Position numbers and translations under genes: made by a program. From Candidatus Saccharimonadota bacterium (GTDB lineage Bacteria > Patescibacteriota > Saccharimonadia > Saccharimonadales > UBA10212): a stretch of DNA of 46,274 nt. Under the pieces are notes generated by a model. It did no database searches. It was not told the origin of the DNA and saw only the letters and a list, made by a program, of their open reading frames with translations. The stretch spans positions 1 through 46,274 of the forward strand of contig JACRBB010000031.1 in the NCBI GenBank assembly GCA_016234585.1, in the 5' to 3' direction. This document shows, in pieces, positions 9,191-46,274 of the stretch; positions within the stretch are counted from its first letter, which is position 1; every line of letters begins with the position of its first letter.

Positions 9191-9209
9191 ATCATATCAT
9201 AAAACTTAA

Positions 9210-11550: not shown

Positions 11551-11551
11551 A

Positions 11552-12355: not shown

Positions 12356-13260
12356 CTTTTACTCCCCTTGTAAAAACGCAAGAACTCTTCTTCGAGGTTA
12401 ATACCCCGGCTATCCAGACTAAGCACTCCGTGGTGAGCCAAAACAGTGAAAAGAGGGCTGAGGTCACCCCTTATATGAACACTCACGTGGCTGGGACTGT
12501 TAGAAGTTACTTGAGTGTGTTTTAGCTTTTTAAGTTCAAGGAGTGGCGCTTCAGCAGCAAAAGTCACATCAAAAGTTTGTACCGCGGTTTTAGAAAGATC
12601 GGCAATTGTTACTTCGGATATTAACTGCCCGTCACGGATAAAGCCTACTCGGTCGCACATTTTTTGCACTTCGGCTAGGTTGTGGCTGCTTATAAAAAAT
12701 GTTGTTCCTTTGGCTTTGGTGCTTTTTACCAGCTCGTAAAACGCTTCTTGCATCAATGGGTCCAGACCCCCGGTCGGCTCGTCCAAAATTAAGACTTCCG
12801 GTTCGTGCATCAGGGCCTGGATAAGACCGATTTTTTGGCGGTTACCTTTGGAAAGAGTGTCGATGCGCCGGCTCAAATTAGCCTGGAAAATTTTAGCCAA
12901 CTCCTGTTGATAGCTTGCCCGTTTTGGAGGCTGTAGCTCGGATAGGTACCTCAAAAACTGATGGCCGGTCATTTTGGGGTAAAGCTCTACATCACCGGCT
13001 AAGTAGCCTACCTGTCGCTTTATAGCGACTGATTCGGTCACGATATCACGCCCGGCGATTTTACCACCGCCGCTGGTCGGCTGGATAAAATTCATCAGAA
13101 GCCGGATAGTTGTTGATTTACCGGCGCCATTCGGGCCCAAAAAACCGTAAACTTCGCCGGGATTAATCTTAAGATTAAGGTCCTTTATGGCAAAATTACT
13201 GGCGCCTGGGTAACGTTTACTTAGTTTGCTAACCTCGATTACTGGTAAGTTATCGGCCAT
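12352..13260 (-). CDS. ABC transporter ATP-binding protein
   Basis: Walker A GPNGAGKST, signature LSKGNRQK, Walker B VLILDEPT. Confidence 0.93.
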   Translation of the reverse strand: MADNLPVIEVSKLSKRYPGASNFAIKDLNLKINPGEVYGFLGPNGAGKSTTIRLLMNFIQPTSGGGKIAGRDIVTESVAIKRQVGYLAGDVELYPKMTGHQFLRYLSELQPPKRASYQQELAKIFQANLSRRIDTLSKGNRQKIGLIQALMHEPEVLILDEPTGGLDPLMQEAFYELVKSTKAKGTTFFISSHNLAEVQKMCDRVGFIRDGQLISEVTIADLSKTAVQTFDVTFAAEAPLLELKKLKHTQVTSNSPSHVSVHIRGDLSPLFTVLAHHGVLSLDSRGINLEEEFLRFYKGSKR

Positions 13261-22407: not shown

Positions 22408-22413
22408 AAGGAG

Positions 22414-24432
22414 GTGAAAACCTTGAGTGATGTAGTTTTGAGTGACGAGAGATCAGATCGCTCAACCAGGAGCGGGTCGTTCTGGCGGTGGTTCCTGATC
22501 ATGATCGCCATGATTTCGGCGGTCATGATGGCGGGCTACATAACCATCTGGGCTAACCTCGGTCGCGAACCTATCGCAGCCGCCCAGCACGGATGGCATG
22601 AGCACGTCATCAACAGCCACAGCTACACGGTCAAAAACGGCCAGTGGAACACCCCGGATCAGCCGGCTAGCCAAAAGCTAGACGACATCCATACCGCCCT
22701 GCTGAAGACCGGAAAGGTCTTCATGCTAGCGGGAAGCGGCAACAACATCAACCACTCCCACCACGAGGTCTACCAGGCCGGCATCTATGACCCGGAAACG
22801 GGTCAGACCAAGGTCCTGCGCATTCCGAACGATATGTTCTGCGCCGGCATCACCACGCTCAGCGACGGACAGTTGCTGATCGCTGGCGGCACTTCGCACT
22901 ACGAGGTGCTAAAGACCGAGGTCCAGTACGCCGGTGGCGTCATGACCATCAAGAACGAGTCGCCCGACAGCGGCACGTTCGTTCTGCCCAAGGGAACCGA
23001 GCTACGTTCACCCGGTGGCAGGTTGTACCGAACCCGGGACAGCCTTCGGGTTGACCCAGCCACCAAACAAGTGGGTCCCCGGGGAGCAGTTACGATTACG
23101 GCTTCCTCGCAGGACACGTGGGTGGATGCGGAGGCGAAAGGCGCGTCCTCGGTTTCGACCGACACGCACATCACCTACACCGTCGTTAGCGGGCTTCCCC
23201 CGGAAATTCAGTCCAACAACGTCTACGGCGTGTCTTCTTCTACCGGCCTGACGCTCGACAAGCAGGAGTTCGCGGGAGCGAGCTTCAGCTACCTGTTCGA
23301 CCCCTCGGTCGAGCAATTCACCAAGGTCGACAACCTGAAGTTCGCCCGGTGGTATCCAACCACCATCACCCTGCCCAGCGGTCGGGTTCTGGCGATTTCG
23401 GGACTGGACCAGTTTGGCCGGATCCTGCAGGGCTTCAACGAGGTATACGACCAGGTGACGCAGAAGTGGACGCTTCTGCCTCACACCAAGCTCTTCCCCA
23501 CCTACCCGGCAATGTTCGTTACCGAAAGGCCCAATACCCTGCTCTACACCGGCGGCAGCGCCGGTTACGGCAGCGACAAGATCGGCCGATCACCGGGACT
23601 CTGGAATTGGCAGACCAACGCCTTCCAAGCAATTCCCGGTTTGCGTGACAGCAACATGACGGAGACCAGTGATTCGCTTCTGCTGCCTCCGGCTAACGCC
23701 CAGCGCTACATGATCGCCGGTGGTGGTGGGGTGGGTAACTCCGAGAAGTCCACAAGCAGGACCGACATCGTCGACCTGAAGGATTCTCACCCACGCTTCA
23801 CTCCGGGTCCCGATCTGCTGACGAAGCTGCGGTACATGATTGGCACAATCCTACCGGACAACACCGTGCTCTTCAGCGGTGGCACCGCCGGTTATCGTGC
23901 CAACGGCAACAGTTACACGCACATGGCCGCCATCTACGACCCGGCCACGAACATAATGCGGCGGGTAGCTGACTCGCGCATCGGCCGCACATACCACAGC
24001 TCGGCAGTTCTGCTGCCGGACGGCTCAGTCTTCACAGCCGGCGGCGACCCGTTGTACAGCGACGCTGCCGGTAAAATCCCCGGCAGTTTCGAGCAGCGGA
24101 TCGAGATCTACAAGCCGCCCTACATGTTCCAGGGAGAAAGGCCGGTCATCATCGACGGTCCCAGCGAACTGGTGCGTGGGCAGTCTGCGGAGCTGTCGGT
24201 CTCAGCAGACCAAAAGATCACGGGTGCGCGCCTGCTTCGGCTGGGCGTCTCCACCCACACCACGGATAACGCCCAGCGTTCTGTCGAGCTGAAAATTCAG
24301 CATGACGGGACAGGAAAGCTCGGCGTCACCCTGCCCAAGAGCGGCAGATTGCTCATGGGCGGTTGGTACATGTTGTTCGTGTCCAACCAGGACGGTGTGC
24401 CTTCAGTGGCACGCATGGTCCACGTTGCGTAG
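22414..24432 (+). CDS. glxA: Membrane-anchored radical copper oxidase, galactose/glyoxal-oxidase-like (GlxA-like), kelch propeller plus DUF1929-like C-terminal domain
   Basis: N-terminal TM anchor (FWRWFLIMIAMISAVMMAGYITIW). All galactose-oxidase cofactor and ligand positions are recognisable: Cys in MFCAGITTLSDGQ, Tyr in ARWYPTTITLPSGR, Tyr-His in RTYHSSAVLLPDGSVF, His in STHTTDNAQR. The SD GAAGGAGG overlaps the GTG at 22414, so the in-frame TTG at 22423 is the likely start. Confidence 0.85.
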   Translation: MKTLSDVVLSDERSDRSTRSGSFWRWFLIMIAMISAVMMAGYITIWANLGREPIAAAQHGWHEHVINSHSYTVKNGQWNTPDQPASQKLDDIHTALLKTGKVFMLAGSGNNINHSHHEVYQAGIYDPETGQTKVLRIPNDMFCAGITTLSDGQLLIAGGTSHYEVLKTEVQYAGGVMTIKNESPDSGTFVLPKGTELRSPGGRLYRTRDSLRVDPATKQVGPRGAVTITASSQDTWVDAEAKGASSVSTDTHITYTVVSGLPPEIQSNNVYGVSSSTGLTLDKQEFAGASFSYLFDPSVEQFTKVDNLKFARWYPTTITLPSGRVLAISGLDQFGRILQGFNEVYDQVTQKWTLLPHTKLFPTYPAMFVTERPNTLLYTGGSAGYGSDKIGRSPGLWNWQTNAFQAIPGLRDSNMTETSDSLLLPPANAQRYMIAGGGGVGNSEKSTSRTDIVDLKDSHPRFTPGPDLLTKLRYMIGTILPDNTVLFSGGTAGYRANGNSYTHMAAIYDPATNIMRRVADSRIGRTYHSSAVLLPDGSVFTAGGDPLYSDAAGKIPGSFEQRIEIYKPPYMFQGERPVIIDGPSELVRGQSAELSVSADQKITGARLLRLGVSTHTTDNAQRSVELKIQHDGTGKLGVTLPKSGRLLMGGWYMLFVSNQDGVPSVARMVHVA

Positions 24433-24457
24433 CGTCCGATAAGGACATGCGCGGCAA

Positions 24458-24492
24458 GCACCCCCAAGCCATGATGGCGAGGGGGTGTTTTA
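24458..24492 (+). terminator. Rho-independent terminator after the glxA-like gene
   Basis: CACCCCC (24459-24465) pairs with GGGGGTG (24481-24487). There is an inner GCCA/TGGC stem. TTTT follows at 24488-24491. Confidence 0.6.
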
Positions 24493-24532
24493 AATTTATC
24501 AAAGGTAATTTTGGACTCATTATAAAAGCACC

Positions 24533-24583
24533 CCCGGTGCGAACGGCCATCCATGGCCACTCGCACTCGGGGGTTATCCGGTC
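24533..24583 (-). terminator. Rho-independent terminator after the GH6 gene (potentially bidirectional)
   Basis: 12-bp stem with one bulge: CCCCCGGTGCGA (24541-24552) pairs with TCGCACTCGGGGG (24571-24583). There is an inner GGCCAT/ATGGCC stem. On the minus strand it is followed by TGCTTTTAT. Confidence 0.55.
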
Positions 24584-24592
24584 CCATATGCT

Positions 24593-25573
24593 TTAGGATC
24601 CGGTTAGCTGGCTAGCCAGCTTCGGCGACCAGACACCTGCCGGCTGGCTGATGCCGTGGCAAACACCATCACTATCCCCGGGCTGTTTCACCCAGAGATA
24701 GGCGTCAACCAATGGTTGGTTGGTGCGGGTAGTCGGGCTGTCGCCCAACTTCTGCCCCGGCTGATTGCACCAGGGCTTACCGTCGTTGACCGGTGTTGGC
24801 CCAGCACCGTTCCGACTGGTGTCGATCACGAAGTGCTTGCCACCAAGCCGCTTGCTCACGGCCGTACCGTAGCGAATGCTGCGTGACGTGGTCTCGTAGT
24901 TCGCCACATTCAAGGCGAACCCGTCGGCCTCTGCCACACCGGCCTGCTTAAGTGCGTTCGCCAGCTGGGACGGATCGTCGATCCATCCAGCGTTACCCGC
25001 GTCGATGTAGACGTAGGCGTTGGACGCTCTCTTGAGCTTGCCGACCGCATAGGCCAGTAAGCTAAGATGCGCGTTGGCGTCCGTGCTGTGGCAGGCCTGA
25101 ATGGTCTGTGCCAGAGCATCCGGCTCCAGGATGATCACAACCGGGTCGTTGTTACTCATACCGACCGCGAATCGACGGATCCATGCGCGGTAGGCCGCCG
25201 GACTGGCTGCCCCTCCGGCCGATGACCCGCCGCAATCCCGGTCCGGGATATTGTAGGCCACCAGCACAGGCAGCTTGCCAAATGCCGCGACCGACTGAAC
25301 GTACTCGGCGATATCAGCCTCGAGGTACGGGTCCTTTCCGAACCACAGAGCTGACGGCTGACTGCCGATCACCTCGCGCTCCTTTGGCGTGCCGTGTGTC
25401 TGCCCATGATTTTGCGGGTCGACATACAGCTCGTAGCTGTTCAGTGGATTCGACGCGCCACTGGCACTCCTAGCGGTGGACGAACCGGAACCACCACAAC
25501 CAACAACGATCAGCGCGGTGGCGGCCATCGCCGCCACCATGGCAGCGATTGTTAGCCGTCGTACATAACTCAT
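24593..25573 (-). CDS. cslZ: Glycoside hydrolase family 6 beta-1,4-glucanase, lipoprotein (CslZ-like)
   Basis: Lipobox LIVVGC after a hydrophobic signal. GH6 blocks are present: YNIPDRDCGG, IILEPDALA, YIDAGNAGW, FALNVANY, VIDTSRNG, WCN and LWVKQPGDSDG. The segment is GC-rich. Confidence 0.88.
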   Translation of the reverse strand: MSYVRRLTIAAMVAAMAATALIVVGCGGSGSSTARSASGASNPLNSYELYVDPQNHGQTHGTPKEREVIGSQPSALWFGKDPYLEADIAEYVQSVAAFGKLPVLVAYNIPDRDCGGSSAGGAASPAAYRAWIRRFAVGMSNNDPVVIILEPDALAQTIQACHSTDANAHLSLLAYAVGKLKRASNAYVYIDAGNAGWIDDPSQLANALKQAGVAEADGFALNVANYETTSRSIRYGTAVSKRLGGKHFVIDTSRNGAGPTPVNDGKPWCNQPGQKLGDSPTTRTNQPLVDAYLWVKQPGDSDGVCHGISQPAGVWSPKLASQLTGS

Positions 25574-35591: not shown

Positions 35592-36914
35592 CTAGGACTG
35601 GGGGGCGGCTTCTAGGGTCGCCTTAACCGTTATGGTCTTACCATCCCGAACTACCGTTAGAGTCACGGTGTCTCCAACCCTGAAGCGGCTCAGAGCGCTG
35701 GTCAGGCTAGTCTTATCGTCTATGGATATATTGTTTAATTTGGTGATGATGTCCTTTTCTTTCAGGCCGGCTTTGCTGGCCGGACTGCCCGAAATTACAG
35801 ATTCCTGACCATCGCTGGGCGGCGCAATGTACGCCCCACGCTTGACGCTCAAGTTGTATTGATAAGCAATATCGTCGGTCAGTGAAATGTAGCGCACGCC
35901 CAGATACGGCTGCAGCAGCTGGCCTTTATCTAGCACACTGGTTATTAGCCCCTTAAGATCGTTGATTGGTATTGAAAAACCGATATTTTGGGCATCGCCG
36001 GCGATAGCCGTATTGATACCGATTACCTCGCCGTTGATATTTACCAGCGGACCGCCAGAATTACCCTGGTTGATGGCAGCGTCGGTTTGGAACAGATCAG
36101 TCAAGTTTTCGCTAGAGCCACTGCTACCAGAGCCGTCCCCGGCGGTTACGTCACGTCCGTAACCAGAAATTATGCCACTGGTAACCGTGTTTTGGAACTG
36201 ACCCAAGGCATTGCCGATAGCAACTACTTTGTCGCCCACCTGTACCTTGGAAGAATCACCTAGCGTAACTGGGGTTATTTTTTTGCCCTTCAGATCGGTT
36301 ATTTGCAGAAATGCCACATCTAGTGAACTGTTATCGCTGGTACGGCCAAGTACTTTTACGCCTTTATAAAGGGTCCCGTCGGCCAAGGTAACATCGACAC
36401 TGCTGCTACCGCTAGGCACGACATGGCGGTTGGTAACAATGATGCCATCGGAGCTGATAATAAAACCGGTGCCGGCGCTTTCTTGGCTTTGGGTCTGGCC
36501 GCCGGAAAAACCAAATATGTCGGGCGCCGCCGTAACCTGACTTTGTACGTCTATGGACACCACGCTTTGGCCAACGTCTTTAGCGATTTGTGATATTAGC
36601 TGGCTTTCATTAGAGATATATTGCTGCTTGGCGGCCTTGGTGGTGGAAGGCGTACTATTATTCTGGATAGCATAAGCCAGCCAACCGCCGCCAAAACCCA
36701 CCAGCAGACAAGCCAGTAGTAGAGTCACAACCCGAAGCGGCAGCTTGCCTCTCAAGCCCTTAGCTTTTTTGACAATCGTGTTCTTATTATTAAAATGCGG
36801 CAAGCCAGAGGAAGTCCTGCCCGTAGAAAAGCTGGACAGTCCAGGCTCTGCCTCGGGTTCGAGAGTCGACTTGCCAGCTCGGTTTTTAGAATCGTTTTCC
36901 ATCTTATACCCCAT
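35592..36914 (-). CDS. htrA: HtrA/DegP-type serine protease with PDZ domain, membrane-anchored
   Basis: TNRHVV (His), GNSGGPL (Ser) and a C-terminal PDZ-like region. N-terminal TM LRVVTLLLACLLVGFGGGWLAYA. Confidence 0.9.
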   Translation of the reverse strand: MGYKMENDSKNRAGKSTLEPEAEPGLSSFSTGRTSSGLPHFNNKNTIVKKAKGLRGKLPLRVVTLLLACLLVGFGGGWLAYAIQNNSTPSTTKAAKQQYISNESQLISQIAKDVGQSVVSIDVQSQVTAAPDIFGFSGGQTQSQESAGTGFIISSDGIIVTNRHVVPSGSSSVDVTLADGTLYKGVKVLGRTSDNSSLDVAFLQITDLKGKKITPVTLGDSSKVQVGDKVVAIGNALGQFQNTVTSGIISGYGRDVTAGDGSGSSGSSENLTDLFQTDAAINQGNSGGPLVNINGEVIGINTAIAGDAQNIGFSIPINDLKGLITSVLDKGQLLQPYLGVRYISLTDDIAYQYNLSVKRGAYIAPPSDGQESVISGSPASKAGLKEKDIITKLNNISIDDKTSLTSALSRFRVGDTVTLTVVRDGKTITVKATLEAAPQS

Positions 36915-36965
36915 TATTACACGGCCTATCTGAACGATAGCTGAAGAGCCCTGGCCCCCGTCGTC

Positions 36966-37730
36966 TTAAACCGTAACGCCCGTCCAGTCCGATAAAACCA
37001 CCACGATTAATAATATAGCGAACATAATCGCCAGCAGCTGCCGCTGTAGTAGCGCCGTCAACCGCTCGTGGGAATCCAAGTAATAAAGCGCCCCCAGACC
37101 GTAACCCACAGTGGTCAAAATAACGATTATCTGGGCAACCGTGCCATAAAACAGCAACCAATGCCCCAGCACAAAAGCCAGGCCGGCGGCAAAATAAGCC
37201 CAAACGTGAGCCAGCAGCGCCGTGTGAGGCTCCTCGAAACTGGTTAAAAAGTGTCTGGCTGCCAGGTCAGCCACCAACCAGGTGCCGGCCACCAAAGCTA
37301 CCAGCGACGTATCACCGAACTTCAGATACAAAACCGCCAGACCGGCCAGCTGGGCCAACATTGCTTGAATTGAAACGCTAAGCACGTCGGAGCGAGGCTT
37401 AAGCCAAATTAACCAAATGCCATAGATAGTTGTCCAGAAAAGCTGCCACCACTGTATGGACGTATTAGCCATAAACAGCACAAGCGCCACTGATACTAAG
37501 ATATCGGCGCTGCTGGCAATTAGATTGGCGGGCCAATAACGGGGACGAACTGCGAACATCCGCCATTTACTAAGCAGCACTAGTACAATGGCCAGACTTA
37601 CAAAATCAATTCGGACCAGTATATAGATAATAAGCGGCAACAAAAACATCGCCACGATATGACGAAAATGCGCGAACCCGCGGGTAGGCTTAACGATTTT
37701 GGTAAATTTAGTTGGAAGTCGACGAGGCAT
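36966..37730 (-). CDS. Hypothetical polytopic membrane protein
   Basis: 254 aa with about 7 hydrophobic segments. Start overlaps the LCP gene stop by 23 nt, which implies an operon. Confidence 0.6.
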   Translation of the reverse strand: MPRRLPTKFTKIVKPTRGFAHFRHIVAMFLLPLIIYILVRIDFVSLAIVLVLLSKWRMFAVRPRYWPANLIASSADILVSVALVLFMANTSIQWWQLFWTTIYGIWLIWLKPRSDVLSVSIQAMLAQLAGLAVLYLKFGDTSLVALVAGTWLVADLAARHFLTSFEEPHTALLAHVWAYFAAGLAFVLGHWLLFYGTVAQIIVILTTVGYGLGALYYLDSHERLTALLQRQLLAIMFAILLIVVVLSDWTGVTV

Positions 37731-39366
37731 CTTTACCTAAGATTATAACAAACTGAGTCCCTACCGGCGGTGTCAGACCGGTACCGGCCGGCATACTGGT
37801 GACGGCTGAGGTATTGTAACGCCTCTCTAAGTAATTACGGGTGTACTTGTTGGCGCCTTTGCTTAGATCCACTACCACGGTCTTGGCGGGGTTGGTAGCG
37901 GTTGGCAAACTGGCTGTTGTAGTCACGTTATAACCAACCGATTTAAGCGTGTTGGTCTGAGTGGTTGCCAGACCGGCGGTGCTGGTGGCGTTATAAACGG
38001 CTACAGAGGCATTCTCTTTGGCTAAGAAGCTGTCGCGCAAAGCCTTGTGAACGTAATCCTGGATAGCGTCATAAGTAAAGAGTCCCTCTTTGGGAGCAAG
38101 CGTGGAAACGCCCGGAATATTACCGTTTACCAGCAGGTTGCTTGGCGGTGTGACTAGATCGAGTGACTTAATATTAGACGATTGAACCTCTGATATCTCT
38201 TTATATAGACACTTAATGCTGCCGCTATCAAAATCGGTGTAAACGTTGTTGCCTAACCCGTCCAGAAGCTGTGAAATCCTGATCGGATTGGTGAAAGTTC
38301 CGGCCGAAAGCGCTTTATCGCGGATGGCGACTATCAATGACCTCTGCCGTTCGGCTCTATCAAAATCACCCCTGGTGCTGGTGTGGCGTGAGCGCGCGAA
38401 GTAAAGGGCCCGGGTACCATCAAAATGTTGCGGACCCGACTGAACATCCAAAGTGTAGTGTTGGCTGGTGTTCTCTACCCAAAGGACTTCGTGGACGGCT
38501 TCGTCTTTGGGCACATTTATATCTACCCCGCCAAGCGCGTTAACGATGTCTTGGAAGGCCTTAAAGTTAACCAAGGCGTTGTAATGAATGGGGATGCCCA
38601 AAATCGCTTCCAGGGTTTGGTCGGCCGATTTTATGCCGTCGTTACGCTTCTGATTAATGTCGGTCGACTTGGAGCTGGTCTTGCCAAAATAGTAAGCTTC
38701 GTTGATTTTGCGCGAGCCATCACCCGGGATTTTAACCCACAGATCACGGGGCACGCTAAGAAGACCCAACTTCTTATTCACCGGGTCAAGGCTGGCAATC
38801 ATGATGGTATCTGTTAAATCGGGCGCTTCGTGTCCATCGCCGCCAATACCCAGAAGCAGGATATTAACCCGGCTGTCGCCTTCGGTCTTCAATTGGTCAA
38901 CCGGCACGTTGCCATCACAGACGGCCGGAGCCTGGCCACCGCCGGAAAGCACTTGTTTTTGGGTGTGATAAACCTTATAGCCAAGATAAGCCGCACCACA
39001 CAGCAGCGCTACTCCTATCAGCAACGCGCCACGCTTTAAGACTTTTCTAAGCCTAGGATGTTTATGATGTTTAGTCCCCAGATGACGATTTTTACGGGAC
39101 TTATCGCCTTGGTCGTCTAAAACTATCGGTTCGTTAAGAATAGCTTCGTCATCTGGTAGTTCGTTCAGACTCCCAGAGGTAGACTGGCGGATCGGGTGAA
39201 AGCCCTCTTCGCGTCGGACTAGTGAATCCAGGCTGGGAGTAGCCACGCCGCGATCAGGCTGGTAAGAGCGATGCGTGGGGACTCCAAGACGGCGTCCATC
39301 GGACACCATTCCATCTATAGAGGCCGGCCTTTTTGGCCCCTGAAACTTCTTATGTTCGCGCATCAC
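37708..39366 (-). CDS. LytR-CpsA-Psr (LCP) family cell-envelope phosphotransferase with LytR_C-like C-terminal domain
   Basis: TM anchor followed by the LCP core (NILLLGIGGDG…DTIMIASLD…SVPRDLWV…INEAYYFG). Confidence 0.85.
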   Translation of the reverse strand: MMREHKKFQGPKRPASIDGMVSDGRRLGVPTHRSYQPDRGVATPSLDSLVRREEGFHPIRQSTSGSLNELPDDEAILNEPIVLDDQGDKSRKNRHLGTKHHKHPRLRKVLKRGALLIGVALLCGAAYLGYKVYHTQKQVLSGGGQAPAVCDGNVPVDQLKTEGDSRVNILLLGIGGDGHEAPDLTDTIMIASLDPVNKKLGLLSVPRDLWVKIPGDGSRKINEAYYFGKTSSKSTDINQKRNDGIKSADQTLEAILGIPIHYNALVNFKAFQDIVNALGGVDINVPKDEAVHEVLWVENTSQHYTLDVQSGPQHFDGTRALYFARSRHTSTRGDFDRAERQRSLIVAIRDKALSAGTFTNPIRISQLLDGLGNNVYTDFDSGSIKCLYKEISEVQSSNIKSLDLVTPPSNLLVNGNIPGVSTLAPKEGLFTYDAIQDYVHKALRDSFLAKENASVAVYNATSTAGLATTQTNTLKSVGYNVTTTASLPTATNPAKTVVVDLSKGANKYTRNYLERRYNTSAVTSMPAGTGLTPPVGTQFVIILGKDASSTSN

Positions 39367-39454
39367 GTAACGTCCAGTATATCATTACGAACCGCCCTAG
39401 TAATACGTAAAAGCTTGTGCATAATAATCACTTAGAGGATATAATAAGACACTA

Positions 39455-40258
39455 ATGGATCCAAACCAAAGAGATAATCAACTGTCCCCAGCCCCGGGGC
39501 CGGCCCCTCAACAGCAGCCCGTCGGCAGTAATGAGCCACCTGCTAGCAGCCACCCCATGACGGGCCCGGTCAGCAAGATCTACCCCGATTTAGGTTCTCT
39601 TAACGGCTCTGCGGCCGCATCGGCCGCACCATCTGGCAGCGATAACAGCCCCTCGGCCAACCACCGCTCTAAACCACGCCGACGTGAAGGCTGGAAATCA
39701 GTATTCTCCACGGTACTACTATTTATATTGGCGCCGGTTATTGCCCTATCAATCACAGCTTTTGCTTTTCAGTCATATCAAGTCGACGGCCAAAGCATGG
39801 AGACCACTCTACAAAACGGCGACCGCTTGATAGTCAATAAATCTCCTCGTACTTTGTCAAGAATCACTCACCACGCTTACGTACCCAAGCGCGGAAGTAT
39901 TATAATTTTCAACCAAGCCGGTCTGTTTGACTCTGGTGGAAACCAGGAAAAACAACTTATTAAGCGGGTTATTGGCTTACCGGGCGAACGCGTGGTGGTT
40001 AGTGATGGCCAAGTTACCGTATATAACGACGAGCATCCCAACGGCTACAATCCGGATAAAACCGGACAGTACTCAATTACCGCCTCAACTACGCCAGGCA
40101 ATGTGGACGTAATCTTACGGCCCGGCGAAATATTTGTTTGCGGCGACAACCGAACCAATTCTGAGGATTCACGTTTTTTTGGCCCAGTAAGTTTGGACCA
40201 GGTAGTTGGAAAACTTTTATACAGAGTTATGCCAATTAACAAAGCTCATAAGTTTTAA
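39455..40258 (+). CDS. lepB: Signal peptidase I
   Basis: Catalytic Ser box GQSMETTL, Lys box KRVIGLPGERV, and GDNRTNSEDSR. Pro/Ser-rich N-terminus before the TM anchor. Confidence 0.92.
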   Translation: MDPNQRDNQLSPAPGPAPQQQPVGSNEPPASSHPMTGPVSKIYPDLGSLNGSAAASAAPSGSDNSPSANHRSKPRRREGWKSVFSTVLLFILAPVIALSITAFAFQSYQVDGQSMETTLQNGDRLIVNKSPRTLSRITHHAYVPKRGSIIIFNQAGLFDSGGNQEKQLIKRVIGLPGERVVVSDGQVTVYNDEHPNGYNPDKTGQYSITASTTPGNVDVILRPGEIFVCGDNRTNSEDSRFFGPVSLDQVVGKLLYRVMPINKAHKF

Positions 40259-40293
40259 ATATTTATTGAACTAATTTTTCATTCGGTTTAATT

Positions 40294-41154
40294 TCAGTTA
40301 TTTTGTAATTCGCGGGCTAGTCTGTCCAGCTCTGACTCGTCTTTAAAGCCAATAATAAGCTGGCCGCCCTTTGCCGTATATTTAATTTTTACTGTCGTTT
40401 TGAGTTTTTTACTTATACTCTTGGTCATCTCGGTTTCACTGGCTGTCCGGCCGGTGGCCTTGGCCGAGCTGGCGCCTTTCTTAGCAGCGACCACGAATTG
40501 TTCGGCTTGGCGAACGGTCCAATTGTTATCTAAAATACAACGTAATAATTCTTCCTGTTTTGCTTCATTGCCCTTCAGAGCCAGAATCGCCCTGGCGTGA
40601 CCTTCACTAATTTTTCCATCTGATAGAGCCTGTCTGGCATTTTCTGGCAGCTGCAGCAAGCGGGTCAGATTGCTAAGAGTACTGGTGGCCTTGCCAAGTT
40701 TTGAGGCAATCTGTTCCAATGTTAAGTTAAATTGATGCTGTAATCTATACACCGATAATGCTTGCTCCAATGGCGACAAGTCCACACGCTGAATATTTTC
40801 AATAAGCGATAGTTCAACTTCTTCAAGCTCTTTAAGGCTCCTGACTATAGCCGGTATAGCTTGTAGCTCCGCGGCTTGAGCGGCTCGCCAACGTCGTTCG
40901 CCAGCTACAATTCTATAGCTAGAGCCGTCCCGAACAACAATTATTGGTTGCAACACGCCGTGCTGTTTTACCGATAACGCTAACTCGTTAAGCGCCAGGC
41001 TGTCAAACTCACGGCGCGGTTGCTCCGGATTGGGTCTTATATCCTGGATAAGTATTTTTTGCACCCGATTTTTATCTTCTTCTAAAATGCTCGGATCCAA
41101 ATCCGTGGGCATCAAAATGTCAAAACCTCTTCCTAGACCTGTGTTCTTAGCCAT
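40294..41154 (-). CDS. parB: Chromosome partitioning protein ParB
   Basis: GERRWRAA box and an HTH region. The start was moved from the tracked 41241 to the internal ATG at 41154 (MAKNTGLGRGFDILMP, the typical ParB N-terminus). This gives an 8-nt overlap with the parA stop instead of 95 nt. Confidence 0.88.
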   Translation of the reverse strand: MAKNTGLGRGFDILMPTDLDPSILEEDKNRVQKILIQDIRPNPEQPRREFDSLALNELALSVKQHGVLQPIIVVRDGSSYRIVAGERRWRAAQAAELQAIPAIVRSLKELEEVELSLIENIQRVDLSPLEQALSVYRLQHQFNLTLEQIASKLGKATSTLSNLTRLLQLPENARQALSDGKISEGHARAILALKGNEAKQEELLRCILDNNWTVRQAEQFVVAAKKGASSAKATGRTASETEMTKSISKKLKTTVKIKYTAKGGQLIIGFKDESELDRLARELQNN

Positions 41155-41911
41155 ATAGTCTTTTCTCCAATTCTCTAGATAATGCTTTGTAGGCTCTGGC
41201 GCCCTTACTCCATTTATCATGCTCCGAGATAGTCTTGCCAAAACTTGGTGCTTCGGCTAACCGGACATTGCGCGGAATAACTGTTTTAAACACTTTGGAA
41301 CCAAAATGTTTATCCAATTCTTGTTTTACTTGTTCAGATAACGAGGTCCGGCTGTCGTACATGGTCATAACCACACCCAGTACATTAAGGCTGGGGTTCA
41401 GGGCTTGGCGGACTTGTTGGGTCACGCTGAGCAACTGGCTCAGGCCCTCCAAAGCGTAATATTCGGTTTGGACCGGTATCAGCACGTCGCTGGCAGCTGT
41501 CAAAGCGTTGATGCTCAGCAGCCCGAGTGATGGCGGGCAATCTATTAGGATAATGTCATAGTCCAGAGCATTAAGAATATTCTTGAGCTGTTGTTCACGG
41601 TTCATAACGCTTACCAACTCAACCTCAGCAGCTGCCAGCTGGGCGTTGGCCGGCAACAAAAATAGCCCGTGTGTAGTCACTTCGCGGATGACGTCTGTAG
41701 CTTGCGCGCGGGAAAACAGCACGTCGTACAATGTTGAGTCTAATGTCTGCTTATCCACCCCCAAGCCACTGGTAGTATTGCCCTGAGGGTCCAAATCTAC
41801 CACCAAAACACGCTTGTTGGCATGAGCTAAAAATGCCGCCAGGTTAATAGTAGTGGTAGTCTTGCCAACCCCGCCCTTTTGATTCAGTACCGCAATTATA
41901 TGTTTGGCCAT
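41147..41911 (-). CDS. parA: Chromosome partitioning ATPase ParA/Soj
   Basis: Deviant Walker A NQKGGVGKTTTT. 254 aa. Confidence 0.93.
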   Translation of the reverse strand: MAKHIIAVLNQKGGVGKTTTTINLAAFLAHANKRVLVVDLDPQGNTTSGLGVDKQTLDSTLYDVLFSRAQATDVIREVTTHGLFLLPANAQLAAAEVELVSVMNREQQLKNILNALDYDIILIDCPPSLGLLSINALTAASDVLIPVQTEYYALEGLSQLLSVTQQVRQALNPSLNVLGVVMTMYDSRTSLSEQVKQELDKHFGSKVFKTVIPRNVRLAEAPSFGKTISEHDKWSKGARAYKALSRELEKRLYG

Positions 41912-42005: not shown

Positions 42006-45000
42006 CTACTGTTGGACCAGGTAGTCGAACTGTAGATTGGCTGGGGCTGGCCCGGAAAGGTTGATCTTGAACTGCTGCGGAGTTTTGACGACCCAATATC
42101 TGAGGTTGCCGACATCTGAAGTAGCCGTTACCACCACAAATGGAGCGCTTGCGTAAGGCTTGGCAAAGCTGTAGGTGATACCGTTTTGGCCTGTCAAAAT
42201 AGTAACCGTACCAGCGGTGTCGGAGTTACCAATTACGTGTCCTTTTAGTGTAATATTGCCATTAAAGGTGGAGTCACCGTTTACTGTCAGGTTCGTAGCC
42301 GCCAGTTTGCCGACGTTAATATCCATGGCTATACCGCTGTCACCTTGCAAGTCACAGATGTTAAAGTACTGCTGGGTTTGCACAAATATAGTTATGCTAT
42401 CGATGTTATCGCCGGTGTGATTTTCAAGCGCGCGGCCGACAATCATTCCGCCAGACTGGGCCTTTACGCCTACTCCGTCGGTGTCAGATATGGTAATTGG
42501 GTCACCTATGTTTATATCGCCCTTCACTTTAAGCGGCACTTTACCAGCTAGTGCAATTAACTTCTTATCGTCAGATGGATGTTCGTAATCTCTTAATGCC
42601 AGACCGGGTTTGGTAGAAACCACACCTAGCAGGTTAGGTCTGTCGCCAGGAGCGGCCCGCTTAAGTTTGCCGGTAGCGGTGTTAAGGGCTACGATTTCGC
42701 CAGGCTGTAAGCTATTATCTTCTACAGAGTATTCCTCGGCAAGGTCAAAGTTGCTGATAGAGAAGGTCTTGCCATAGTAATTGGCAGCATAAATATCATT
42801 AAAGTAGTTGGTTACGCTACCAATGTTCGAACCGCCTGTTATAGAACCGCCTGTGGTTTGGCTACAAGCCGGGTTAGCACACTTAACTACCCTAAGATTT
42901 AAGTCGGAACCAAAGCTATCATATTCAGAAATAAGCGGCAGCCCATCAGCCGCTACAACAAGCGAGCTATAGTTTCCGTATACAGGCGAACCAGCATCTA
43001 CATCCACAGTGGTTAATGTATTGCCAGTGGAACAAGAGGCATTACCACACTTGGCGACCCTCAAACTGCTATTCGTTGAATCTTTGTAGGAAATCACCGG
43101 GTAGCCATCCTGGCCCAGGGCAAGTGAGGTATAAGCTCCAACATTGGCAACCGAGCTATCAACAATTGTGAGAGTTGGAGTGCCCGTGCAGCCAGTATTC
43201 AAACACTTGGCCACTTTCATTCCGACCGTTCCCGTTCCCTGTTGGTAAGCAATAACCGGGTAACCGTCGGTGCCGATGGCCATTGTGGAATATGCACCGT
43301 CATCCTGAGCCGTATCAAGGCTAACAGGTGTAGCAAAGGATGAACACGAGAGATTATTACACTTAACAAACTTAAGATCTAGGCCCGTAGCATAGTAGTA
43401 AGATATTACGGGGTAGCCGTCGGTGCCGATAGCAATCGACGTGTCTTGGCCGGTTGTGTTAGTAGTATCCAGTGCTGTAGCTGTGTCGCTGGTTGAACAA
43501 GTAGCATTAGTACAGTGTTTTACATATAGGTCACCACCCGTGGCGTAGTAGTAAGATATTACCGCAAAGCCATCTATGCCGATGGCAATGGATGTATATT
43601 GGCCGGTGTTGTTAGCACCCTGGCTATCCAACGTAGTTGTGGTGTTACCAGATGTGCAATCCGCATTACCACATTTTATAACCTTAAGCGCGGTGTTAGT
43701 TATATCGTAGTAAGAGATTATTGGGAAACCATCTGGCGCAATAGCCATAGAGCTGTACTGCCCAACGTCACCGCCTGTATCCGGTGAGGTTGTGGTTGCA
43801 GAGGTACAGGCAGCGTTACTACAGTGAGCAACCTTTAGGTCGTGATTGGTGTTGTCGTAATAAGATATTACGCCCAAGCCATCACCGCCGATTTTTATTT
43901 CAGTATCTATACCAACGTCACCGGTCGTGTCTACGTTTGTAGCTGTTTGGCTGGTAGCCCCACCCGTGGGAGCCGCGAAGGCTAAGATGTTGCCACCAAC
44001 AAATAGGTTGTTGCTGTTAGTAGTACCTATATATACACTGCCGCTAGCTGCCGCTTGGATAGATACAGCCCCCGCCCCATTACCCCCCTGAATAGTAGTA
44101 GTATGGGCGGCCGCACCGATACTACCTATGGTTATGCCGACAGTCCCGGTGGTAGTGCCGCCATCGCCTATGTGAATAGTCTTAGTGGTGCTGGCACCTG
44201 GCACACCCGTGCCCAGGTTTAATACCAAGCCACCGGAGGTAGTGGTGGTGCCACCACCTAGAGTGATGGTTTGGGTGGCGGCAGTTAAGTTACCAGAACC
44301 GATACTTATAGTGTTATTAGCGGTAGTGGCTTGACCAATCGTGATAGTACCACTGGCCGCGCCGGTACCACCTAGGGTGATAGTGCCAGAGTTAGTGCCA
44401 CTAGTGTTATTAATACTGACATTGTCTGAATTGGTAGTGGAGCCAGCAGCGCCTATATTTATAGTGTTTGCTGTTGAGCCTGTTTGACTACCAATTGTAA
44501 TCGTGCCGGCATTCCCAGCTTGTATGGCTATAGCACTAGCTCCTGTACCACCTTGGATAGTTGTAGCTGATGTACCAAGCAAGTTGCCTACGGTCAAGGC
44601 GGTTGTAGAGGAAGCGGTAGCATTGTTACCTATACTAATTGTTTGGGCAACCGCTCCAGTGGTATTACCAATTTGGACTGTCGAGGCTATGCCAGTATTA
44701 CCAACTGAGACTGTTGCCCCTGAGGTATCTACAGATAGGTAGGTATTTCCGGCAACATTCATAACCTGGAAACTACTACTGGAATCGGCAGCGTTTTGGA
44801 ATAAGGCCGCCCCGCTAAACGTCGCAGAGCCACCGGCGTGAAGGGTGTCTTGGACTGTTAACGATCCAGAGTTATCAATGGCTTGGGTATCAACCGACAA
44901 CTCATCAAAGTAGGTTACGTCCGTTTCCGAACCGTTATGTGAGCCAATGGAAAAGCGGTTGGGGTTAGTAGTAGTGGCCAGGGTATCCACTGAACCACTG

Positions 45001-46274
45001 GTAGACGGAGTACCGTCGTCAACTGTCAACTGACAGCTACCTGTATTACTTACCACAACTTTTATCTCGATCTTATGCCATGATCCGGTGCTTAGGGCGC
45101 CACCAGTTACGCAGTCACCACCTGCGCCACCGGTTAGGGGAGCTGAGTAAACAGCAATGTTACCGCCAGCTTGGCGGTAAGCAGTTATCTCAGAGGCAGC
45201 AAAGCCATCGGTGCTATTGTACAGGCTGAATAAAGTGACTTTGGTACTTGTAGATGCAATATTTACATAACCCCTGGCGTACATGGTGGCCGCGCCAGAT
45301 ATATTCTTTTCCCTGTATGCAAAACTTGCCGTTGGGTTTACTTTTGCCGAATAGCCGCCAGCGAATACGGTTGCCGTGTCTATGCTTGAGGTACCGACCG
45401 TAGCATTCCACAATCCATAAGTACCGGTTTCGAAATTATCGCTAAAGGCTCGATTGCCCGTGACTGAACCAACTGCCAGTCTTCCGCTGAAAACTCCTTG
45501 ATTGACGGTATCTACACCAAGGTAATTTGTACCAGCTGCGTTCTGGACTTGGAAGGCAGTGGTGGAGTTGGTTTGGTTCCTAAAGGCAGTGGCGCCGCCG
45601 TCGGCAATATCCAAAACATTTTGTGAAGTAGCCGTAGTGTCGGTAACCCTAAATAAGCTGCCAGTACTTCCTGTGCCACTAACAGCTAAAAGAGCGGCTG
45701 GATCGGACCCGCTAGCCGTGCCAATACCTACATTTTGATTAGTACCCAAAACAATTGCCCGGCCATTATTAATGTCTATTACCCCCTGGCCAGTATTCTC
45801 TTGCCAAAAACCAAATCCAGAGGTATCAAGGCTGCCAAAAGTATTATTATTTATCAGCAAGGCATAGGAATTTCTGTCGGGTGAAGTTAATTTTAATACA
45901 TCTGCTGTTTGGCCAGTTGTGCCTTGGATAGTTGCCACTACACTACTGCTGCTGGCCGATTGGATATTGAAGTTGGCGTTACTCTGGGTAGACGTCCCAT
46001 TCTGTATGTAGCTACCGGAACCACTAGATGCAGCATAGCCAGTACAGACAGAGCCTGTGGAACAAAGCGTGCCATTCTCGGCAGGTAGGTTAAGGGTGTA
46101 GGCGGTACTGGATGGGCTTAGGGGCACCAGGCTTATGGAGCCGGTTTGGGCAGTAAAGTTAAACTTAAGATTACCGGTTACACCAGATGCACCCGAGTTG
46201 CCTAAACTTACAATGCCACCAGAAGTATCGGCAGTTAGAACGTTCTTGCCAGCGGCGTTTTGGATCTGGAAGGC
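42006..46274 (-). CDS. Giant secreted/surface protein with tail-fibre-like architecture, 5'-truncated by the window end
   Basis: The tracked ORF starts at a GTG at 46127. Hand translation shows the frame stays open to 46274 (AFQIQNAAGKNVLTADTSGG…), and 4269 nt is 1423 codons. The motif FQ[VI][QM]N[AV]AG.N.L..DT recurs at least 3 times. The protein also has a LamG-like insert, a Gly/Thr-rich region, 7 Cys-pair blades and a Peptidase_G2-like C-terminal region. Confidence 0.85.
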   Translation of the reverse strand, partial: AFQIQNAAGKNVLTADTSGGIVSLGNSGASGVTGNLKFNFTAQTGSISLVPLSPSSTAYTLNLPAENGTLCSTGSVCTGYAASSGSGSYIQNGTSTQSNANFNIQSASSSSVVATIQGTTGQTADVLKLTSPDRNSYALLINNNTFGSLDTSGFGFWQENTGQGVIDINNGRAIVLGTNQNVGIGTASGSDPAALLAVSGTGSTGSLFRVTDTTATSQNVLDIADGGATAFRNQTNSTTAFQVQNAAGTNYLGVDTVNQGVFSGRLAVGSVTGNRAFSDNFETGTYGLWNATVGTSSIDTATVFAGGYSAKVNPTASFAYREKNISGAATMYARGYVNIASTSTKVTLFSLYNSTDGFAASEITAYRQAGGNIAVYSAPLTGGAGGDCVTGGALSTGSWHKIEIKVVVSNTGSCQLTVDDGTPSTSGSVDTLATTTNPNRFSIGSHNGSETDVTYFDELSVDTQAIDNSGSLTVQDTLHAGGSATFSGAALFQNAADSSSSFQVMNVAGNTYLSVDTSGATVSVGNTGIASTVQIGNTTGAVAQTISIGNNATASSTTALTVGNLLGTSATTIQGGTGASAIAIQAGNAGTITIGSQTGSTANTINIGAAGSTTNSDNVSINNTSGTNSGTITLGGTGAASGTITIGQATTANNTISIGSGNLTAATQTITLGGGTTTTSGGLVLNLGTGVPGASTTKTIHIGDGGTTTGTVGITIGSIGAAAHTTTIQGGNGAGAVSIQAAASGSVYIGTTNSNNLFVGGNILAFAAPTGGATSQTATNVDTTGDVGIDTEIKIGGDGLGVISYYDNTNHDLKVAHCSNAACTSATTTSPDTGGDVGQYSSMAIAPDGFPIISYYDITNTALKVIKCGNADCTSGNTTTTLDSQGANNTGQYTSIAIGIDGFAVISYYYATGGDLYVKHCTNATCSTSDTATALDTTNTTGQDTSIAIGTDGYPVISYYYATGLDLKFVKCNNLSCSSFATPVSLDTAQDDGAYSTMAIGTDGYPVIAYQQGTGTVGMKVAKCLNTGCTGTPTLTIVDSSVANVGAYTSLALGQDGYPVISYKDSTNSSLRVAKCGNASCSTGNTLTTVDVDAGSPVYGNYSSLVVAADGLPLISEYDSFGSDLNLRVVKCANPACSQTTGGSITGGSNIGSVTNYFNDIYAANYYGKTFSISNFDLAEEYSVEDNSLQPGEIVALNTATGKLKRAAPGDRPNLLGVVSTKPGLALRDYEHPSDDKKLIALAGKVPLKVKGDINIGDPITISDTDGVGVKAQSGGMIVGRALENHTGDNIDSITIFVQTQQYFNICDLQGDSGIAMDINVGKLAATNLTVNGDSTFNGNITLKGHVIGNSDTAGTVTILTGQNGITYSFAKPYASAPFVVVTATSDVGNLRYWVVKTPQQFKINLSGPAPANLQFDYLVQQ
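42858..43931 (-). repeat. Seven tandem ~50-aa protein repeats (putative 7-bladed propeller) inside the giant protein
   Basis: Repeat consensus D..G..G.Y[ST]S[IM]AIG.DG[FY]PVISYY…DLKV.KC.N..C. It covers aa 733-1090 of the tracked ORF. The copies have diverged at the nucleotide level. Confidence 0.75.

Follow-up and report, generated by a model that had tools for sequence, protein, structure and literature searches.

The minus strand at the edge of a 46,274-nucleotide window (the whole stretch of DNA analysed) encodes a giant protein of Saccharibacteria. This protein is probably exported, either staying on the cell surface or being secreted, and probably binds glycans as a fibre-like molecule. 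An adhesin role, with attachment to a host, is plausible, and the protein is a good candidate for a fibre that grips host-cell surface sugars. Its features, with residue numbers counted from the window edge, are as follows:

42006..46274, minus strand: giant-protein open reading frame, 1,422 codons and a stop, N-terminus beyond the window edge
45450..46274, minus strand: N-proximal stalk modules (aa 1-275), from a motif scan; common to relatives
44865..45449, minus strand: concanavalin-A-like jelly roll (aa 276-470), Cip1- and polysaccharide-lyase-like by family profile
43965..44864, minus strand: Gly/Thr/Ala/Ile-rich short-repeat region (aa 471-770), from composition and repeat; starts with a third module of the FQ type, FQVMNVAG
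42840..43964, minus strand: seven-bladed beta-propeller (aa 771-1145), one C-x4-C pair per blade (AlphaFold2, Foldseek)
42345..42839, minus strand: putative phage tail-spike-type C-terminal assembly domain (aa 1146-1310; folded core ~aa 1175-1305) (PHROG, Foldseek, BFVD, tblastn)
42729..42746, minus strand: motif D1177-L-A-E-E-Y, preceded by F1176, counterpart of the gp12 auto-cleavage site S691|D692-F-A-E-Y-F
42009..42344, minus strand: linker (aa 1311 to ~1349) and terminal beta-sandwich (aa ~1350-1422), H-type-lectin-like, ending in FDYLVQQ (AlphaFold2, Foldseek)

The gene, its locus and its export

Translation of 42006-46274 gave a single frame without an internal stop, open at the window edge as an earlier note on this DNA had described it. 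In an independent assembly (L002), the frame is likewise uninterrupted: the orthologue P0002 has 1,667 aa and 87% identity, and the gene order is identical. Where computable (the synonymous sites of the jelly roll are saturated), dN/dS between the two genes is 0.025 to 0.10, which marks the long frame as a genuine gene kept by purifying selection. The GTG at 46127 in the ORF-tool list is merely the first possible start within the window. The note had also placed the gene next to parAB in an episymbiont-like genome, and both points held. The next genes downstream, on the minus strand as well, are those of ParA (41147-41911) and ParB (40294-41241), and the best 80 ParA relatives are all from Saccharibacteria or Saccharimonadales MAGs. 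The neighbours L21, ParA, ParB, signal peptidase, LCP and HtrA keep their order in two other genomes. The lineage is of groundwater type.

For the N-terminus and signal sequence, missing from the window, relatives give a guide. P0002 starts with MLKRIYTRVHAPARGKAR-LLGLFVVLAGAATVITAF-PTHQANA|A, a Sec-type signal peptide, and its relatives (the best 40 of 66 inspected) likewise open with a charged n-region and a hydrophobic core followed by a site of AxA type. The N-terminal domain of P0002 is common to all 66 retrieved relatives; in the best 40 inspected it follows the signal-like segment directly, with few exceptions. A hydrophobic N-terminal segment is also present in 86 of 107 relatives of the propeller. 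As the window lacks the N-terminus, export is deduced from these relatives, and the missing part very probably carries a signal peptide. Moreover, a long upstream part may be missing, since the first 80 window residues align with internal positions 52-1270 of relatives, mostly 474-1270. No wall-anchoring signal was found in the window protein, which has neither an LPXTG motif nor a C-terminal membrane segment and ends in FDYLVQQ.

Stalk and lectin-type modules

A motif scan placed the recurring FQ(V/I)QNAAG modules noted earlier at aa 2, 241 and 502. A degenerate version, NFNIQSAS, was seen at aa 102, and the cysteines at aa 71 and 77 make up a C-x5-C pair. The N-proximal region (aa 1-275) is common to 50 to 84 retrieved Saccharibacteria giant proteins and matches no Pfam family; the number of its modules differs between the window protein and the orthologue. 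The Gly/Thr/Ile-rich short repeats were likewise present, at aa 471-770 (T 20%, G 18%), where a hydrophobic-x-hydrophobic-G motif returns every ~13 residues. This region had no PDB or Pfam match, profile search included, and is presumed to form a beta-solenoid stalk.

Taken by themselves, the domains of the window protein all fall short of the curated Pfam and NCBIfam cut-offs; families were therefore assigned by fold or by profiles made from relatives, and all lectin assignments are at the fold or superfamily level. For the jelly roll, the earlier guess of a concanavalin- or LamG-like insert proved right in direction. A profile of 11 sequences, the window copy included, matched Cip1 of Hypocrea jecorina (3zyp) over its full length at E 9.5e-8, whereas the window copy alone stayed under the cut-off for Laminin_G_3 (E 0.0037). 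The range of 225-415 given earlier for this insert was numbered from the internal GTG, ~49 residues lower. The structural calcium ligands of Cip1, Glu7 and Asp206, align with an invariant E and D of the family (PMC3764139). Full-length match and invariant ligands are what the domain shares with Cip1 and the PL20/PL14-like jelly rolls of the ConA-like lectin/glucanase superfamily. In contrast to Cip1, the window domain sits inside a fibre-like protein as one of its modules, and the proposed cleft residues of Cip1 have no confident alignment to the window family.

Exactly seven C-x4-C pairs, spaced ~51 residues apart between aa 818 and 1137, bear out the seven Cys-pair blades seen earlier, and the AlphaFold2 model (pLDDT 92.4, pTM 0.91) folds the region into 28 strands, i.e., seven blades of four. 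In Foldseek, its best matches were the Photorhabdus lectins PLL, PLL2-5 and PHL (E 5e-14 to 1e-11, TM 0.72-0.80), with which it shares seven four-stranded blades and near-identical repeats of ~50 residues at a sequence identity of 11 to 14%. The C-x4-C pair, invariant in every blade, sets the window propeller apart from these lectins, which are free, soluble proteins, whereas the window propeller is a single module of a giant protein. The NCBIfam model beta_propeller_lectin gave 15 bits against a cut-off of 200, and the propeller belongs to a large sequence family of its own, some members of which match Pfam DUF1936 weakly. Its near-identical blades suggest multivalent binding.

Several of these matches raise another reading, a secreted or surface enzyme that, like a phage tail-spike depolymerase, would cut polysaccharides of the host envelope or matrix for access or feeding. 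Pfam Polysacc_lyase was found in 10 of the 11 jelly-roll family members (CBM_4_9 in 5), and the second-rank fold matches of the propeller are enzymes, namely GH145 BT3686 (E 1e-11), PL42 rhamnose-glucuronate lyase, ulvan lyases and sialidases. Moreover, tail spikes with a C-terminal domain of the gp12 type, discussed below, are often depolymerases (PMC13317679). Cip1, the nearest solved relative of the jelly roll, resembles PL20 and PL14 lyases, and itself showed no convincing activity (PMC3764139). By both E-value and TM-score the top propeller matches are all lectins, seven near-identical blades would be typical of multivalent lectins rather than of enzymes with a single active site, and every curated enzyme family was unmatched at its cut-off. 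We thus consider a degrading enzyme unlikely and favor glycan binding.

A third lectin-type module closes the protein. The small terminal beta domain proposed earlier is present, its last 70 residues modelled by AlphaFold2 with a pLDDT of 93 to 98. Foldseek matched it to the Helix agglutinins 4q56 and 2ccv (TM 0.52-0.54, E 0.012-0.03) and to the Pam1 tailspike (7eea). The guess of an H-type lectin stood at the level of fold and of relatives, 7 of 12 family members matching Pfam H_lectin (best E 6.6e-5), but the window copy itself was unmatched. Like the agglutinins of Helix pomatia and Helix aspersa, the domain is a small beta-sandwich of ~75 residues; its resemblance to the C-terminal domain of the tail spike of cyanophage Pam1 is just as close, and the likeness is one of fold.

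A C-terminal domain of phage type

Immediately after the propeller lies a domain that, by sequence and structural modelling, is homologous to the C-terminal auto-chaperone of the phi29 gp12 tail spike. It matched the PHROG family "tail fiber protein" (E 8.5e-8) and, in Foldseek, C-terminal fragments of gp12 (3suc, E 1.4e-4; 3gqh, E 1.8e-4, TM 0.58) as well as phage decoration proteins; its BFVD matches were "preneck appendage" and tail-fibre proteins (E 1e-11 to 1e-12). An hhalign comparison of the family alignment with gp12 residues 671-854 paired DLAEEY with the cleavage site S691|D692-F-A-E-Y-F, and of 26 family members at least 90% keep the D and E of the motif. The phage appendage-like region of the earlier note was thereby borne out, whereas the Peptidase_G2 profile proposed for recognizing it left the window copy unmatched in Pfam.

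The likeness to the gp12 pre-neck appendage (MEROPS/Pfam Peptidase_G2) extends to the fold of aa ~1175-1305, to the motifs D-x-A-E-x-Y/F and G-V-(V/I)-S, which align with the cleavage site and the residues following it, and to a position C-terminal to a long, beta-rich and repeat-rich protein. Unlike gp12, the window gene is chromosomal and its product a predicted Sec-exported bacterial protein; ~110 residues, the lectin-like domain included, follow the domain, which is thus not the extreme C-terminus; and a Phe, in place of the Ser of gp12, precedes the Asp. Phages cleave the gp12-type domain away once assembly is complete and discard it. ATP, on which the cleavage of gp12 depends, is lacking outside the cell. 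Some relatives of the window protein have the domain internally (e.g., residues 1058-1214 of 1735 in P0007), a position that suits a structural module kept in the protein better than a chaperone that is cleaved off. The gp12 domain itself is a trimeric auto-chaperone required for folding (PMC13317679, PMC3357383).

Homology to phage virion proteins could also mean a true phage tail fibre, left by a prophage or phage remnant or belonging to a tailocin-like particle. The closest phage proteins, virion proteins of PA5oct-like and CP220-like phages, are ~32% identical by tblastn, and in this single domain only. No phage gene adjoins the giant gene, whose L21-to-HtrA neighbourhood is the same in two other genomes; P0002 has a Sec signal peptide, a feature foreign to virion proteins; and dS of the 3' part is close to that of the flanking chromosomal genes. 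A phage origin of this kind is highly improbable, and a bacterial surface or secreted protein remains our reading.

Family plan, mosaicism and proposed function

By comparison of relatives, the protein belongs to a very large family of modular giant proteins with both ends conserved and a variable middle. Behind a signal peptide comes an N-terminal domain of ~135 aa that is conserved, then a changing series of stalk repeats and sugar-binding or propeller modules, and finally a conserved C-terminal module. The last was found in ~50 retrieved relatives and, at E<=1e-3, in 34,363 cluster representatives. Middle domains in relatives include Kelch, CBM_4_9, LVIVD, YadA-head, beta-helix and Peptidase_S74; at this locus, the closest GTDB species combines Kelch, jelly-roll and propeller domains with the C-terminal module, and Saccharibacteria have several paralogues with differing binding modules.

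Alleles at the conserved locus upstream of parAB are mosaic. Between close relatives, identity is 70% in the N-proximal modules and 72% in the jelly roll, compared to 91 to 96% in the propeller and C-terminus and 95 to 99% in flanking proteins (S26, 90%), and pS is near saturation in the 5' part (0.69-0.77) versus 0.21 to 0.47 in the flanks. The earlier note had read the layout as a fibre with a distal receptor-binding head and proposed comparing variability in the head domains. The parts it listed are there, but the C-terminal "head" is conserved and the N-proximal modules and jelly roll have diverged most. A distal head at the C-terminus is doubtful as stated, because the family conserves its C-terminal module, where variation would be expected in a tip that sets specificity, and because phages remove the gp12-type domain after assembly.

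The size of the family and the strong conservation of the C-terminal part would also suit a general surface coat or fibril, with a role in the architecture of the envelope, in aggregation, in binding to particles or to a biofilm matrix, or as a phage shield or decoy, without specific host recognition. The neighbourhood of housekeeping and envelope-biogenesis genes points the same way, as does the propeller, whose more than 2,000 sequence relatives span many non-episymbiont phyla, Gammaproteobacteria and Nitrospirae included. Recognition of a variable external ligand nevertheless fits better with three modules of lectin type and with the mosaic turnover that the sugar-binding part shows between close relatives, and the paralogues carry different binding modules; we give a general coat a low probability.

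For a glycan-binding fibre, the following course can be proposed. The protein would be exported via Sec, as the signal of P0002 suggests. By analogy with phage tail spikes, the C-terminal domain would align three chains and nucleate folding of the stalk from the C-terminal end, with self-cleavage at F1176|D1177 after assembly as a possible further step. The N-terminal domain, judging solely by conservation and position, may hold the fibre at the cell. The Cip1-like jelly roll, PLL-like propeller and H-lectin-like tip would then attach to polysaccharide of a second cell, the most plausible target being the envelope of a host bacterium, and multivalency would make the binding strong. Specificity might be retuned by swapping modules and whole 5' gene segments between alleles. 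The label "fibre" implies a trimer and an anchor, and this architecture is a prediction for the window protein.

Our literature search found no experimental study of this giant-protein family. The K1F endosialidase tail spike (endoNF) has a comparable layout, with a propeller per chain, a lectin-like beta domain, a beta stalk and a C-terminal intramolecular chaperone (PMC3357383). No sequence similarity to it was found in the window protein; its propeller is six-bladed and a sialidase, in contrast to the seven blades here, and its chaperone is of the Peptidase_S74 rather than the gp12 type. Epibiotic growth of a cultivated member of the Saccharibacteria requires surface proteins that bear glycan-binding domains (PMC10633639). 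These "adhesins" of Southlakia epibionticum, identified by Tn-seq, resemble the window protein in phylum, export, polysaccharide-binding domains and proposed host-glycan targets; they carry VCBS, dockerin and fibronectin-III domains (PMC10633639).

Open frame, gene context and constraint

Translation of the minus strand recovered 1422 codons in one open frame at 42006-46274, with its stop at 42006-42008 and the other end open at the window edge. The ORF tool gave 1373 aa because its start is the first GTG within the window; the residue numbers in the earlier note were counted from this internal GTG and are therefore ~49 lower than those used here. The giant ORF reaching the window edge and adjoining parAB, as that note described it, was borne out by translation and gene annotation, and every part that it had named was present in the translated frame. 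A motif scan located three FQ(I/V)QNAAG-type motifs (aa 2, 241, and 502) and one degenerate copy (aa 102). The jelly-roll-like insert spans aa 276 to 470 and the T/G/A/S/I-rich stretch aa 471 to 770, while exactly seven C-x4-C pairs lie at aa 818 to 1137 with a period of ~51 residues; a C-terminal region of ~280 residues follows them. No paralogue of the giant gene was found elsewhere in the window, and Rfam detected no RNA genes in it.

The next genes downstream, on the strand of the giant gene, encode ParA and ParB; beyond them come an S26 signal peptidase on the opposite strand, an LCP-family protein, a conserved protein of 254 aa, and an HtrA-like protease. This block follows the giant gene in three genomes and forms, beside the partition genes, a series of envelope- and secretion-related genes; its 254-aa protein is 99% conserved and has no Pfam family. 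The longest ParB frame (40294-41241), which opens with TTG and encodes 315 aa, shares 95 bases with the end of ParA (41147-41911). ParB of the orthologous locus is annotated with 285 aa, and the real ParB start in the window probably lies downstream of this TTG.

Downstream block shared by three genomes
Window: 35592-41911
L002, an independent public assembly: 7128-13008
L003, the closest GTDB species locus: 4698-11254 (gene identities from ORF sizes only)

L002 encodes a 1667-aa protein with 87% identity in the order L21, giant gene, ParA, ParB, S26, LCP. Between the window and L002, dN/dS was 0.025 to 0.10 for every computable part of the giant gene, with synonymous sites saturated in the jelly roll, and 0.007 to 0.11 for the flanking genes. 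At the level of codon comparison, these values demonstrate purifying selection on the giant gene. The worry that the frame might be interrupted is answered, as far as sequence data allow, by the intact L002 orthologue and the low dN/dS.

GTDB representative genomes were reached through a ParA scan, which returned 80 loci; the C-terminal protein used as a single query against these genomes found no close relative. Nearly all of the 80 loci are titled Candidatus Saccharibacteria or Saccharimonadales, the others being a few Patescibacteria group or "bacterium" entries and one Limnocylindria, and the best ParA match (92% identity) comes from a groundwater MAG of the Crystal-Geyser type. Nearly all relatives of the giant protein, too, are Saccharibacteria or Patescibacteria proteins, of 1000 to 2500 aa. 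Thus, the description of the genome as episymbiont-like is correct at the phylum level. Pieces related to the giant protein occur ≤10 kb from parA in 22 of the 80 loci. In ~10 other Saccharibacteria genomes (loci L017, L022, L031, L032, L035, L040, L041, L065, L069, and L075), parA is directly preceded by another large ORF of ~960 to 1015 aa whose similarity to the giant protein is undetectable, and this position seems to hold several kinds of large gene.

Domain folds and export signals

When searched directly against Pfam and NCBIfam, neither the whole giant protein nor any of eight segments gave a significant match above noise, and a PDB sequence search with the whole protein gave noise as well. 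Most domain identities needed profiles of relatives and structure prediction, which together established the folds and homologies described here. AlphaFold2 modeled the Cys-pair region at aa 771 to 1145 (61-sequence alignment; pLDDT 92.4, pTM 0.91, 28 strands) as a propeller of seven four-stranded blades. In Foldseek, the Photorhabdus lectins PLL, PLL2-5, and PHL ranked first (E 5e-14 to 1e-11; TM 0.72 to 0.80) and made up the top 19 PDB matches, followed by GH145, PL42, ulvan lyases, and sialidases; however, these lectins share only 11 to 14% sequence identity with the propeller, and the NCBIfam beta_propeller_lectin model (NF052348) scored 15.2 bits where 200 are required (E 0.0085). At E ≤ 1e-3, >2000 proteins from many phyla proved related in sequence to the propeller, most of them with an N-terminal hydrophobic segment, and no solved structure for the family was detectable by sequence search. 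This family (window 42840-43964; proteins P0122-P0240) extends to Gammaproteobacteria, Nitrospirae, Patescibacteria, and Aenigmarchaeota, and many of its members are joined to BNR_4 (PF15892) or weakly match DUF1936 (PF09151).

For the jelly roll, a family profile built from 11 sequences matched the Cip1 core domain (3zyp) over its full length (E 9.5e-8; residues 3 to 216 of 218). The invariant E (in FE) and the C-terminal D (in DD/DE) of the family align with Glu7 and Asp206, the structural calcium ligands of Cip1 (PMC3764139), so that the family shares with the Cip1-like (PF21340)/ConA-like superfamily both a whole-domain match and the aligned calcium-site residues. The ConA/LamG-like insert claimed from the sequence therefore holds at the superfamily level through the family profile, but the window's own copy stays below the Pfam gathering scores of Laminin_G_3 (PF13385; 17.9 versus 27.6 bits) and of Polysacc_lyase (17.2 versus 29.9). 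A serious rival to a binding role is that the jelly roll or the propeller acts enzymatically, in a depolymerase-like manner: Polysacc_lyase (PF14099) matched 10 of the 11 jelly-roll members (best E 1.2e-8), with CBM_4_9 matching 5, and lyases and sialidases rank behind the lectins for the propeller. Cip1 itself is lyase-like, yet without convincing activity (PMC3764139).

The G/T-rich region carries a hydrophobic-x-hydrophobic-G motif every ~13 residues, a spacing that would fit a beta-solenoid. Its profile found no match in PDB or Pfam, and the N-proximal modules resembled nothing known. A trimeric autotransporter of the YadA type was rejected, as there is no barrel anchor and no YadA match and the C-terminus consists of soluble beta domains. 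One relative, P0038, carries a precomputed YadA-head hit.

The C-terminal module (aa 1146 to 1422) has phage affinities by several routes. PHROGs assigned aa 1150 to 1273 to a "tail fiber protein" family (E 8.5e-8), and AlphaFold2 (26-sequence alignment; pLDDT 83) resolved two confident beta domains. With the first of these, Foldseek returned phage decoration proteins and the C-terminal fragment of phi29 gp12 (3suc, E 1.4e-4; 3gqh, E 1.8e-4, TM 0.58 over 174 columns), BFVD returned "preneck appendage," Campylobacter phage tail-fiber, and Mtd-N proteins (E 1e-11 to 1e-12; 24 to 30% identity), and tblastn found PA5oct-like and CP220-like phage virion proteins at ~32% identity. By hhalign, the gp12 auto-cleavage site S691-DFAEYF aligned with F1176-DLAEEY, and GVISE aligned with GVVST. 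The D and E of this motif are ≥90% conserved among 26 family members and the residue preceding D is not conserved; the gp12 counterpart is S691/D692-F-A-E695, and the putative site in the giant protein is F1176/D1177. The Peptidase_G2-type appendage proposed earlier is thus supported by the gp12 fold and the aligned motif but not by the Pfam model, PF11962, which gave no match at E ≤ 1 to the window protein, whole or segmented, and matched 2 of 26 relatives (E 0.003). The homologue of this domain at the C-terminus in phi29 and in a marine podovirus forms a trimer, is needed for folding, and undergoes cleavage afterward (PMC13317679, PMC3357383, PMC4690869).

The terminal domain (last ~75 residues) matched the Helix agglutinins 4q56 and 2ccv in Foldseek (E 0.012 to 0.03) and, with similar quality, the C-terminal domain of the cyanophage Pam1 tail spike. 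The H-type lectin suspected there finds Pfam support in relatives, of which 7 of 12 matched H_lectin (PF09458; best E 6.6e-5), whereas the window's copy had no match at E ≤ 1 and its fold similarity to the agglutinins stays at TM 0.52 to 0.54. A contact-dependent toxin was discarded, the C-terminal domain not being toxin-like.

By inspection, the N-terminus of the orthologue from L002 shows a basic n-region, then a hydrophobic core of 18 residues and an A-N-A/A site, and leads into a ~135-aa domain that is present in 66 retrieved relatives. Among the best 40 of these 66, whose sequences were inspected, this domain follows a comparable signal-like segment ending in an AxA-type site, with few exceptions; judged in this way, export signals are present in relatives of the giant protein. 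A prophage or tailocin fiber was rejected on this signal peptide, the conserved chromosomal synteny, and the lack of phage neighbors. The first 80 residues of the giant protein align to internal positions 52 to 1270, mostly 474 to 1270, of relatives, which implies that at least one extra module, and possibly several hundred residues, lie beyond the window edge. The 56-base sequence at that edge had no exact match among metagenome contigs. Neither the N-proximal modules nor the N-terminal domain of the orthologue has a Pfam family. At the other end, which reads ...NLQFDYLVQQ*, a sortase-type C-terminus (LPXTG, hydrophobic segment, charged tail) is absent; since no wall anchor is detectable, the giant protein may be released instead of cell-bound.

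Family, mosaic evolution and candidate function

The C-terminal module stands at or near the end of ~50 retrieved giant proteins, and its profile recovered 34,363 cluster representatives with a threshold of E ≤ 1e-3, of which 5,840 also pass E ≤ 1e-30; most are proteins of 800 to 5000 aa. The N-terminal ~135-aa domain is likewise conserved across the family. The middle modules vary among relatives and include Kelch, CBM_4_9, LVIVD, beta-helix, YadA-head, Collar, and Peptidase_S74. At the same position in L003, where ParA is 92% identical, we found Kelch repeats, an FQIQNAAG module, the jelly roll (60% identity), the Cys-pair propeller (~40%), and the phage-like domain (64%), together with the terminal domain in a longer version.

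Comparison with the near-identical genome L002 divides the giant gene. The flanking proteins are 95 to 99% identical to those of the window (S26, 90%), and identity within the giant protein is 70% for the N-proximal modules and 72% for the jelly roll, 93% for the G/T-rich region, 91% for the propeller, and 94% and 96% for the two C-terminal domains. Synonymous differences approach saturation in the 5' part (pS 0.69 to 0.77) and are nearer the flank level (0.21 to 0.47) in the 3' part (0.45 to 0.61), so that the 5' part has a separate, older history. Judged from these substitution patterns, the divergence of the 5' part reflects allele or cassette exchange and not just relaxed constraint, and the giant gene has evolved as a mosaic. 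Within the propeller (window 42774-43073 and 43374-43673), divergence from the orthologue is uneven: protein identity is 100% for blades 4 and 5 and 84 to 86% for blades 1, 6, and 7, with DNA identity down to 72% in blades 6 and 7. Two 79-base DNA matches between blades (77% identity) suggest blade-to-blade exchange.

The C-terminal region had been taken for a distal, receptor-binding head. Instead, this region is the end conserved across the family and has as its phage homologue a domain that is discarded; the two C-terminal domains are far better conserved between the window and L002 than the jelly roll. Close relatives differ in the N-proximal modules and the jelly roll, and distant relatives differ also in propeller type; specificity, if it resides anywhere, is more likely to lie in these internal cassettes than at the extreme tip.

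Altogether, our data fit an exported, fiber-like, multivalent glycan-binding protein assembled with a phage tail-spike device, for which we infer trimerization, anchoring by the N-terminal domain, sugar binding, the host as target, and perhaps cleavage of the C-terminal piece. The fiber or adhesin interpretation of the earlier note is accordingly plausible and gains partial support from the domain folds and from the signals in relatives, but not in its C-terminal placement of the head. Among phage proteins, the closest analogue in architecture is the K1F endosialidase, in which a propeller and a lectin-like beta domain are combined with a beta-stalk and a C-terminal chaperone (PMC3357383).

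Epibiotic growth of Saccharibacteria, as studied in a cultivated member, requires exported proteins that carry glycan-binding domains (PMC10633639), and so far type IV pili, along with a few "adhesins," have been implicated in how episymbiotic Patescibacteria find and hold hosts (PMC10633639, PMC12206443). It is conceivable, if rather unlikely, that Saccharibacteria, and perhaps many ultrasmall symbionts, have co-opted a phage tail-spike module for cell-anchored trimeric "tail fibers" that recognize host surface glycans, with host range set and reset by swaps of lectin cassettes at a conserved parAB-adjacent locus. Recognition by such fibers would work as with phage receptor-binding proteins: the conserved C-terminal module would serve as the folding nucleus, possibly cleaving itself outside the cell, and specificity would come from the variable cassettes (jelly-roll, Kelch, and propeller).

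We found no paper on this protein family, which is very large and uncharacterized and joins known kinds of module in a combination not yet described experimentally. The giant gene offers a concrete, testable candidate for host attachment with a structural hypothesis for each domain, and its natural allele variants at one locus can be compared for host specificity. Because the C-terminal module marks >34,000 representatives, working out one member would annotate many giant metagenome proteins, and it would exemplify the cellular use of a phage tail-spike folding device for an exported protein.

A high-GC island in the window

The segment at 20644-25573 is a high-GC island, with a GC content of 0.56 to 0.59 compared to 0.45 to 0.51 in most of the remaining window, and carries three genes.

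Genes of the high-GC island
20644-22407, plus strand: GT2 glycosyltransferase
22414-24432, plus strand: GlxA-like radical copper oxidase (GlxA beta-barrel, galactose-oxidase E-set, and Kelch hits)
24593-25573, minus strand: GH6 glycoside hydrolase

We take this trio to correspond to the cslA-glxA-cslZ glycan-deposition cluster of Streptomyces. Actinobacteria are the hosts of cultivated Saccharibacteria, and the raised GC content suggests that the island was acquired from Actinobacteria.
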